From assembly GCA_000165345.1 (NCBI GenBank), contig CM000431.1, positions 1-64,000 of the forward strand: 64,000 nucleotides of DNA. Direction: 5' to 3'. Shown here piece after piece: positions 1 to 2,885 of this stretch. The notes beneath the pieces were generated by a model. It was not told where the DNA came from, ran no database searches, and worked only from the letters and a program-made list of their open reading frames with translations. Within the stretch, counting starts at the first letter, position 1; each line of letters starts with the position of its first letter. The position numbers and the translations under genes are program-made.

Positions 1-2651
1 TTACAAATAAGGGACTCGGTCACCCCCTGAAACGCCCAGACCGAAAACCCTAAACCGAAACCTAAAACCTAAAACCCTAAGCCTAAACCTAGACCTAAAA
101 CCTAAAACCCCCTTAAACCCCTAAACCTAAACCTAAACCTAAACCCCTAAACCTAGGCCCTAAACCTAAACGCCCTAAACCTAAAACCTAAAACCTGAAA
201 CCTAAACCTAAACCCTGAACCTAAAAAACCTAAAACCTAAACCTGAAACCTAAACCCTAAACCTAAACCTAACCTAAACCTAAACCCCCTAAACCCCTGA
301 ACGTAAACCTGGACCTAAAACGCGTAAACCTAAGAGCCTAAACCTAAGACCGAAACCCCGGAACCCTGAAACGCTGAACCTAAAACCTAACCTAAACCTA
401 AACGCTGAAACCTAAACCTAAACCTAAACCTAAAACCCTAAAACCTAAACCTAAAGCTAGACCTAAACCCCCTAAAACGCCGGAAGCTAAACCTAAGCCC
501 TAAACCTAAACGCGAAACCTAAACCTAAACCTAAACGTAAACCTAAACCTAAACCTAAAAGCCCTAAACCCCGGAACCTAAAACCTAAACCTAAACCTAA
601 ACCTAAACCTAAACCCCTAAAAGCTAAACCTAAAACCTAAAAACCCTAAACCTAAACCTAAAACCTAAACCCTAAAACCCTAAAACCCTAAACCTAAACC
701 TAAAACCTAAACCTAAAACCTAAACCTAAACCTAAAACCCTAAACCTAAACCTAAACCTAAACCTAAAACCCTAAACCTAAACCTAAACCTAAACCTAAA
801 CCTAAACCTAAACCTAAACCTAAACCTAAAACCTAAACCTAAACCCCTAAACCCCGAAACCTAAACCTAAACCCCTAACCTAAAACCTAAACCTAAAGAC
901 CTAAACCTAAACCCCTAAACCTAAACCTAAAACCTAAACCCCTAAACCCTAAAAACCTAAACCCCTAAACCCTAAAAACCTAAACTAAACCTAAACCTAA
1001 AACCTAAAACCTAAACCTAAAACCTAAACCTAAAACCCCCTAAAACCTAAACCTAAACCTAAACCTAAACCTAAAACCCTAAACCTAAACCTAAACCCCA
1101 AAACCCTAAAACCCTAAACCTAAACCTAAACCTAAAACCTAAACCTAAACCTAAACCTAAAACCTAAAACCTAAACCTAAACCTAAACCCCTAAAACCTA
1201 AACCTAAAACCCTAAAACCCTAAACCCCTAAAACCTAAACCTAAACCTAAAACCTAAACCCTAAACCTAAACCCTAAAACCTAAACCTAACCTAAACCCC
1301 TAAAACCCTAAACCTAAACCTAAACCTAGACCCCTAAACCTAAACCCTAAACCTAAAACCTAAAACCCCGGGGCGGAAACCTAAAACCCGGCTAAACCTA
1401 AACCTAAAGGTAAACTAAAACCCTAAAAACCTAAAACCTAAACCTAAACCCCTAAACCTAAAACCCTAAGCCTAAACCTAAAGCTAAACCTAAACCTAAA
1501 CCCCCTAAAAGCTAAAACCTAAAACCTAAACCTAAACCCTAAACCTAAACCTAAACCTAAACCTAAACCTAAACCCTAAACCCCTAAACCTAAACCTAAA
1601 CCTAAAACCTAAACCCTAAACCTAAAACCCCTAAACCTAAACCCTAAACCCTAAACCTAAACCTAAACCTAAACCTAAACCTAAACCCTAAACCCTAAAC
1701 CTAAAACCTAAACCCCTAAACCTAAAACCTAAACCTAAACCTAAACCTAAACCTAAAAACCCCTAAACCTAAAACCTAAACCTAAACCTAAACCTAAACC
1801 TAAACCTAAACCTAAACCTAAACCTAAGACCTAAAACCCCTAAACCTAAAACCCTAAACCTAAAAAAAAAAACCTAAAACCCTAAACCTAAACCTAAACC
1901 TAAAAACCCCTAAACCTAAACCTAAACCTAAACCCTAAACCCTAAACCTAAACCCTAAAAACCCCTAAAACCTAAACCTAAACCCTGAACGTAAACCCCT
2001 AAAAACCCCTAAAAACCTAAAGACGTAAAAAAACCTAAACCTAAACCTAAACCTAAACCTAAACGCTAAAACCTAAACCTAAACCTGAAACGCCTAAACC
2101 TAAACCTAAAACGCTAAAAACCTAAAACCTAAAACCTAAAACCGCCTAAAACCTAAAACCCCCTAAACCCTAAACCTAAACCTAAACCCTAAACCCTAAA
2201 CCTAAACCTAAACCTAAACCTAAACCTAAACCTAAAACCTAAACCTAAACCTAACCCCTAAACCCTAAACCTAAACCTAAACCTAAACCTAAACCTAAAA
2301 CCTAAACCTAAACCTAAACCCCTAAACCTAAACCTAAACCCTAAAACCTAAACCTAAAACCCTAAAACCCTAAAACCTAAACCTAAACCTAAACCCCTAA
2401 CCTAAACCTAACCCCTAAAAACCTAAACCTAAACCTAAACCTAAACCTAAACCTAAAACCCCTAAACCCTAAACCTAAAACCTAAACCTAAACCTAAAAC
2501 CTAAAACCTAAACCTAAACCTAAACCTAAACCTAAACCTAAACCTAAACCTAAACCTAAAACCTAAACCTAAACCTAAAACCTAACCCTAAAACCTAAAC
2601 CTAAACCTAAACCTAAACCTAAACCCCCTAAACCCTAAAACCCCTAAAACC
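1..2651 (-). repeat. Telomeric repeat array, (CCTAAA)n on + strand = (TTTAGG)n G-strand on minus strand running toward position 1; ~430 units with CCCTAAA/CCTAAAA variants; first ~600 nt degenerate
   Basis: Direct reading: hexamer CCTAAA tandemly repeated from ~60 to 2651. Orientation is correct for a left chromosome end (C-rich strand 5'->3' inward). TTTAGG is the Cryptosporidium telomere unit (established knowledge). Confidence 0.95.
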
Positions 2652-2885
2652 TTAAAAATCAAATCCATTAAAGAAAATAGTCCGTTAATTAGCAAAAATT
2701 AAAACAAATTAATAATTATGAGAATACTAAATTAATTGAGAAATGGTAAATTAAACATCAAAATAAAACTGGAAATGTATTGTCTGTGAACAATGACTAA
2801 TTAAAACACAAATAATATTTCAACCATAGAAAAAATTGTCAACAATCTATACCCATTGAGAAGAACCAGAATAAGTGAGCTGAAC

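Follow-up and report, generated by a model that had tools for sequence, protein, structure and literature searches.

The stretch of DNA analysed here (64,000 nucleotides of NCBI GenBank assembly GCA_000165345.1, contig CM000431.1, positions 1 to 64,000 of the forward strand; hereafter the window) opens with a long array of the hexamer CCTAAA, and we consider it very likely that window 1-2885 represents the physical left terminus of chromosome 3 of Cryptosporidium parvum and that the G-bearing units in the outer part of the array are probably uncorrected long-read error. In this arrangement, a telomerase-type (TTTAGG)n array caps the chromosome and is joined to unique DNA at a fixed nucleotide, 234 bp from the stop codon of a probable SKSR-family gene, and two layers of irregularity are superimposed on it: extra T or G on the G-strand, which would derive from telomerase, and G on the C-strand, which would arise from read error. 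The features concerned are the following (window coordinates, strand, description and, in brackets, the basis of the call).

1-27, no strand assigned: non-telomeric leader, TTACAAATAAGGGACTCGGTCACCCCC (direct reading)
28-627, plus strand: distal C-strand array, rich in G variants such as CTGAAACG, CGAAA and CCTAGA (wraparound alignment, binomial test)
628-2651, plus strand: main body of the C-strand array, CCTAAA with many extra A or C, as in CCTAAAA, CCCTAAA and CCCCTAAA (repeat call, unit census, wraparound alignment, G clusters)
2504-2651, plus strand: innermost 148 nt of the array, base-for-base identical to the C. parvum sequence CpBGF CP141120.1, including eight variants in 24 units (common suffix)
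2650-2667, plus strand: junction between telomere and unique DNA, CCTTAAAAATCAAATCCA, conserved in C. parvum, C. hominis and C. tyzzeri (five-sequence alignment; the second C. hominis assembly is the same)
2652-2885, minus strand: unique subtelomeric spacer of 234 bp, 3' of the stop codon of the first gene (repeat scan, alignment)
2886-6047, minus strand: first gene (gene 1), 1053 aa, transcribed toward the telomere and very probably cgd3_10 of the SKSR family (open reading frame and translation)

The array occupies window 28-2651, with the C-strand on the plus strand, and comprises about 399 units. Tandem Repeats Finder reports it as a single array (49-2625; period 6, consensus CCTAAA, 395 copies, 78% matches, 15% indels), CCTAAA occurs 332 times in 1-2651 as against 24 times across the other 61.3 kb, and no tandem dimer of CCTAAA or TTTAGG is found outside the array anywhere else in the 64-kb window. 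The array is strand-biased, with a GC skew of -0.82 over 1-2000 and not a single TTTAGG on the plus strand within 1-2651. Its tail reads CCCCTAAAA (2641-2649) and CC (2650-2651), followed by TTAAAAATCAAATCC, which places its end at 2651, where an earlier note, made from the letters of the window, had put it. The TTTAGG strand runs 5' to 3' toward position 1, and the plus-strand CCTAAA thus bears out the statement of that note that the orientation is the right one for a left end. TTTAGG has been accepted as the Cryptosporidium telomere repeat since Liu et al. 1998, and TTTAGG/CCTAAA is the repeat by which published C. parvum assembly papers find telomeres: Menon et al. described them at both ends of C. 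parvum chromosome 3 in the assembly CpBCM-BGF (GCA_019844115; nanopore, Canu and Pilon), each with 100 repeat hits or more, and Baptista et al. at all 16 ends in CpBGF. The left edge of the window therefore carries the repeat of the species in tandem, strand-biased and with its G-strand toward the terminus, and the terminal position is reproducible at the level of assemblies.

For the latter point we compared the window with the same locus in C. parvum CpBGF (GCA_035232765.1, CP141120.1), C. parvum GCA_048859185.1 (CM109963.1), C. hominis GCA_002223825.1 and GCA_045269125.1, and C. tyzzeri UGA55. The order of genes at the fetched loci (an SKSR-like gene, genes for proteins of 376 and 442 aa, a protein kinase, a DUF676 protein and S-adenosylhomocysteinase) is that of the window, and we take the locus to be the left end of chromosome 3 on the basis of contig size and of synteny with the cgd3 gene series, in which S-adenosylhomocysteinase is presumably the landmark. 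In all five other chromosome-scale records (CP141120.1, CM109963.1, LN877949.1, CM098020.1 and PYHZ01000003.1), coordinate 1 lies inside CCTAAA repeats, and the transition from repeats to unique DNA falls at one and the same nucleotide, within the string ...AAAAATCAAATCCA... common to the window and the other assemblies; the junction reads CCTTAAAAATCAAATCCATTAAAG in C. parvum, CCTTAAAAATCAAATCCAGTCAAAG in C. hominis and CCTAAAAAATCAAATCCAGTCAAAG in C. tyzzeri. That other assemblies of the locus begin in the array and share one junction upholds the claim of the earlier note that this is a chromosome end. The alternative, namely an interstitial telomere-like tract or a mis-join with the chromosome continuing past position 1, could appeal to the non-telomeric positions 1-27. 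However, the 27-mer has no match elsewhere in the window or in a prokaryotic genome collection, the orientation of the array fits a left end, the other assemblies terminate in the array at the same junction, and nothing was seen that connects the distal side of the array with unique Cryptosporidium sequence; since junction and terminal position recur in this way, we regard this alternative as very improbable indeed.

The spacer between the array and the first stop codon (2886-2888) measures exactly 234 bp, close to the 230 bp or so of unique subtelomere announced by the earlier note, which had also placed the stop at 2886, as the minus-strand open reading frame 2886-6047 confirms. The spacer contains no direct, inverted or meaningful tandem repeat, the only signal being a 1.9-copy 19-mer scoring 51, so that the absence of subtelomeric repeat families, likewise asserted in the note, holds: non-coding repeat blocks between telomere and first gene, as expected of TARE-like elements, are not found in 2652-2885. 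It is identical in the three C. parvum sequences and about 90% and 88% identical to its counterparts in C. hominis and C. tyzzeri, respectively. Because gene 1 is transcribed toward the telomere, the spacer presumably holds its 3' untranslated region and termination signals. The chromosome end and its junction are therefore real, as is the very short subtelomere free of repeats, and all have been conserved and stable since the three species diverged.

Short-read data and protein-guided searches stop before the junction. The Logan short-read C. parvum contigs end inside gene 1, at 3372 and at 5730-5793, and none of those retrieved reaches the junction; the non-repetitive C-terminal 144 aa of the gene 1 product, used as a query, returned one 645 nt ENA contig that ends 46 nt beyond the stop codon, short of the telomere. 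Nor does the metagenome collection contain an exact copy of the junction string.

The ends of Plasmodium falciparum chromosomes consist of the telomere followed by the TARE 1-6 repeat blocks and the var, rif and stevor genes. The window end resembles them in having degenerate repeats of the apicomplexan telomerase type and a gene of a secreted-protein family first in line; unlike them, it has no TARE-like blocks and only 234 bp of unique DNA before that gene. Duplicated subtelomeres have been described by Baptista et al. 2022 on C. parvum chromosomes 1, 7 and 8, and not on chromosome 3, i.e. in the same genome and next to the same telomere repeat; by contrast, those ends carry ribosomal RNA clusters and MEDLE and tryptophan synthase blocks, many kilobases long and copied among chromosomes, none of which is present within the window.

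To characterize the array itself, we divided it into units and also ran a wraparound dynamic-programming alignment of it against cyclic CCTAAA. The alignment contains 70 events involving G (29 insertions of G and, among the substitutions, 19 A>G, 13 C>G and 9 T>G). Segment 28-627 makes up 23% of the array and holds 44 of these events (binomial P = 1e-12). Of the 75 G bases in all, 49 lie in a cluster at 11-623, 14 in one at 1329-1511 and 9 in one at 1987-2144, and there is none in 2145-2651. The variant units that carry them are mostly singletons without a recurring form, dozens of them (e.g. CCGGAAG and CCCAGA); examples of G-bearing k-mers are CCTGAAACG, CCGAAACC and CCTAGACC. The same measurement applied to the arrays of C. 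parvum GCA_048859185, C. hominis and C. tyzzeri gave 0-1 G-involving event each, and no G variant is visible on reading the second C. hominis array and the CCTAAA part of CpBGF.

The G-bearing units are thus most likely basecalling or consensus errors of long-read sequencing, as judged from the sequences compared. Indeed, telomerase renews the distal repeats, so that old variants should accumulate proximally, and the reverse is seen. The errors would have survived for two reasons: only a few of the longest telomere-bearing reads would contribute to the consensus at the contig end, and short-read polishing could not anchor inside the array, so that near-raw error would persist. The earlier note had proposed such an error for the degenerate distal units, and its proposal gains indirect support from the near-absence of G variants in the other arrays and from the CCTGGG block of CpBGF described below. 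The distal degeneracy that it described holds, subject to two corrections. The excess in the distal 600 nt or so is confined to G events (44 of the 70), and overall identity to a perfect array is just a little lower there, at 508/600 (85%) in 28-627 as compared to about 89% in the rest. Likewise, the proximal 2 kb, which the note set against the distal part as far less degenerate, is non-canonical for about 40% through extra A or C and includes the G pockets 1329-1511 and 1987-2144; it is the innermost 500 nt or so that is free of G.

We also considered that the G-bearing distal units might be genuine, produced by an error-prone telomerase or by recombination-based telomere maintenance, the tip being truly more degenerate. 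The array is irregular throughout, the G pockets also occur internally, and Baptista et al. consider that the ends of Cryptosporidium chromosomes may recombine with one another, all of which would suit this explanation. Against it, five other arrays of the same end, from three species, are essentially without G on the C-strand; no unit recurs, singletons being what noise is expected to give; the innermost 500 nt, in which old variants would be expected to build up, has no G; and a known nanopore artefact of the same kind is present in CpBGF at this very locus. We accordingly hold it to be improbable, and retain read error as the source of the G-bearing units.

The artefact just mentioned is a stretch of about 450 nt of CCTGGG repeats in the chromosome 3 left telomere of CpBGF CP141120.1 (locus coordinates 18270-18700, some 105-535 nt in from the start of the contig). 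It is bordered by CCTAGG/CCTAAG transition units, and about 80 nt of normal CCTAAA lies distal to it. The CpBGF assembly was made from nanopore R9.4.1 reads with NECAT, and Tan et al. 2022 (bioRxiv 10.1101/2022.01.11.475254) reported a strand-specific nanopore miscall of CCCTAA to CCCTGG in 40-60% of telomeric reads; the block, the exact analogue of that miscall for the TTTAGG repeat, looks like an error of the CCCTAA-to-CCCTGG type left in the final assembly. Its presence indicates that this repeat is prone to A-to-G corruption of the C-strand in long-read data of the organism. The corruption in the window is like that described by Tan et al. in that it is specific to the C-strand, has A read as G, is located at a read or contig end and does not recur in other data for the site. 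It differs in extent: the paper describes wholesale conversion of the vertebrate repeat CCCTAA to CCCTGG or CTTCTT, and CpBGF shows wholesale CCTGGG, whereas in the window G substitutions and insertions occur only sporadically, as would be the outcome of consensus building and polishing. The window and CpBGF otherwise represent the same locus, with identical junction, 234 bp spacer, first genes and innermost 148 nt; they differ in the length of the array (2651 nt versus 792 nt) and in the form of the noise, which is scattered G in the outer part of the window and the CCTGGG block in CpBGF.

The other layer of irregularity consists of units with extra A or C. The census of the 399 units counted 183 canonical CCTAAA and 158 variants that differ in run length only, the commonest of which are CCTAAAA (59), CCCTAAA (32), CCCCTAAA (17) and CCCTAAAA (11); the longest perfect run of CCTAAA is 10 units. 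In the wraparound alignment, insertions of A or C greatly outnumber deletions (197 versus 44), and the insertions are spread evenly along the array (8-24 per 200 nt), with an overall density of 7.5 per 100 nt that is matched by 7.8 in C. parvum GCA_048859185, 6.3 in C. hominis and 11 in C. tyzzeri. On the G-strand, these length variants read TTTTAGG, TTTAGGG and TTTAGGGG, and they make up about 40% of units.

The extra A/C units are probably mostly genuine and would reflect imprecise repeat synthesis by telomerase. The position-specific pattern of the innermost 148 nt is common within the IOWA II lineage, which argues for real, inherited variants, since random homopolymer error would not give it; the window array and that of CpBGF can be aligned over about 257 nt with few indels. 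In GCA_048859185, the stretch in common with the window array is limited to its last 22 nt, and beside the junction the arrays of the two C. hominis assemblies are not alike. Telomere-proximal variant patterns may serve as lineage markers. The broader proposal, that Cryptosporidium telomeres have an intrinsically irregular repeat (about 40% of units being T3-4 A G2-4), with an innermost pattern inherited within IOWA II and a junction fixed across three species, has in our estimation an even chance of being right. If it is, irregular telomeres together with a fixed junction would suggest that the telomerase template is prone to slippage and that the chromosome ends are very stable.

Several observations weigh against this reading of the two layers. 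As regards G, the status of the G-bearing units as errors is derived from the comparison of arrays, and the internal G pockets mean that error is not a simple function of distance from the contig end. As regards A and C, the 148 nt identity would not be independent evidence if the window and CpBGF share source reads, and the other arrays, too, come from platforms with homopolymer errors (nanopore, and probably 454), so that the extra A/C units may be such errors: the CpBGF array is nanopore, and UdeA01, which is relevant if GCA_002223825.1 is UdeA01, is 454 plus MiSeq.

The length of the array, given as a telomere of about 2.6 kb in the earlier note, is that found in the window; it is specific to the window assembly, though, and was not reproduced elsewhere, the arrays at the same end in the other assemblies measuring about 170, 195, 345, 575 and 792 nt. 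A capillary-sequenced C. hominis contig with 260 copies of TTTAGG shows that arrays of more than 1.5 kb exist, which makes 2.6 kb plausible for a long molecule. The figure of 2.6 kb most likely represents the longest read or reads, i.e. an upper-tail or assembly-specific value and not a typical telomere length.

It might instead be that the telomere is real while its 2.6 kb length and internal order are a construct of the assembly, with reads stitched out of register and the three G-rich zones corresponding to noisy read starts. The range of about 170-790 nt at the same end in other assemblies speaks for such stitching, as do the discreteness of the G-rich zones (11-623, 1329-1511 and 1987-2144) and an adapter-like sequence, GTTGCGTATTGC, inside the CpBGF array with CCTAAA distal to it. 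This sequence, at about 18712-18726 between the distal CCTAAA and the CCTGGG block, matches the 3' end of the nanopore ligation adapter at 11 of 12 positions, which suggests a read start embedded in the CpBGF consensus; the match is not above shuffled controls, however (score 10 versus a shuffled maximum of 12). Moreover, no adapter-like sequence is found in window 1-2700, the documented capillary-sequenced C. hominis arrays of about 1.5 kb make a single molecule of 2.6 kb plausible, and the short arrays elsewhere may be trimmed or collapsed. On balance, we think stitching possible though rather unlikely, and favor a length that reflects the longest read or reads.

Positions 1-27, rightly described by the earlier note as non-telomeric, were examined for possible sources. 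A second copy of the leader is absent from the window at up to 5 mismatches, and 596 Gb of prokaryotic genomes contain no exact match to the 27-mer. We compared it with the nanopore ligation and rapid, PacBio SMRTbell, Nextera and TruSeq adapters: the local alignment score was 8, compared to a shuffled mean of 8.9, and an adapter origin was rejected, no adapter-like segment being detected anywhere in 1-2700. An origin from a contaminant or a chimera was likewise set aside, with neither an exact prokaryotic match nor a second copy in the window. The leader is most likely read-start or consensus noise.

Much of what is seen at this end is already known, since the TTTAGG repeat, the telomeres of chromosome 3 and the compact genome with a secreted-protein gene beside the telomere have all been described. 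The practical value of the analysis lies in quality control: the outer 600 nt and the two internal pockets should not be read as biology, 2.6 kb is not a figure to cite for the telomere length of C. parvum, and the published telomere-to-telomere reference CpBGF carries at the same end a block of about 450 nt that has the appearance of a CCTGGG miscall. The conserved junction and the possibly genuine irregular units are small additions that could guide a search for the telomerase RNA template.

The product of gene 1 carries at its N-terminus a hydrophobic stretch of the kind found in signal peptides, together with a PSQ repeat and an SKSR/SR-rich repeat (SKSRSRSKSRTRSKSR...). Its assignment as cgd3_10, classed in the literature as a gene for an SKSR-family secretory protein, is very probable and is based on position and motif, not on an accession match. 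The picture of the subtelomere given by the earlier note consequently needs a qualification: it is devoid of repeat elements, as stated, but its first gene very probably belongs to a subtelomeric family, and in some subtypes of C. parvum the opposite end of chromosome 3 reportedly carries a paralogue. In a search with the full-length protein, which was swamped by low-complexity words, the sole distant homologue was a protein of the Cryptosporidium chipmunk genotype (50% identity). The exact 1053 aa protein is reported absent from a collection of 15 billion proteins, yet window DNA 2652-6200 is identical in CpBGF and GCA_048859185; the gene 1 call in CpBGF is 1067 aa long, presumably because of a different start or an upstream difference. 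The coding sequence contains tandem repeats at 3322-3479 and 3767-3895, with periods of 18/36 (SR/SKSR-rich) and 9/18/27 (PSQ), and C. hominis and C. tyzzeri differ in these repeats by in-frame indels of 6 to 54 nt. The plus-strand open reading frame 3091-3552 (LDLDLD...) is the antisense image of the SR repeat.

Further inward, one of several Illumina contigs fetched, 17.3 kb long, matches window 3372-20665 at 100% identity, and the open reading frame 9337-10665 encodes exactly the C. parvum Iowa II protein EAK87327 / IOWA-ATCC CPATCC_000969, which is carried on contigs about 1.1 Mb long. Together with the near-identical loci, this match identifies the source organism as C. parvum. The window as a whole has about 30% G+C and is densely filled with long open reading frames; scans of it for transfer RNAs and Rfam families gave no matches. 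Between gene 1 and the next open reading frame, 6048-7854 is a gene-free interval of 1.8 kb with about 21% G+C, unusually long for a compact genome, and its location upstream of both flanking frames suggests divergent promoters. Finally, a dense nest of tandem repeats (periods 27, 30, 39, 72, 78 and 138) at 42722-43704, over the minus-strand open reading frames 41835-42689 and 43289-44137, is probably part of a gene for a repeat-rich, possibly mucin-like, secreted protein.

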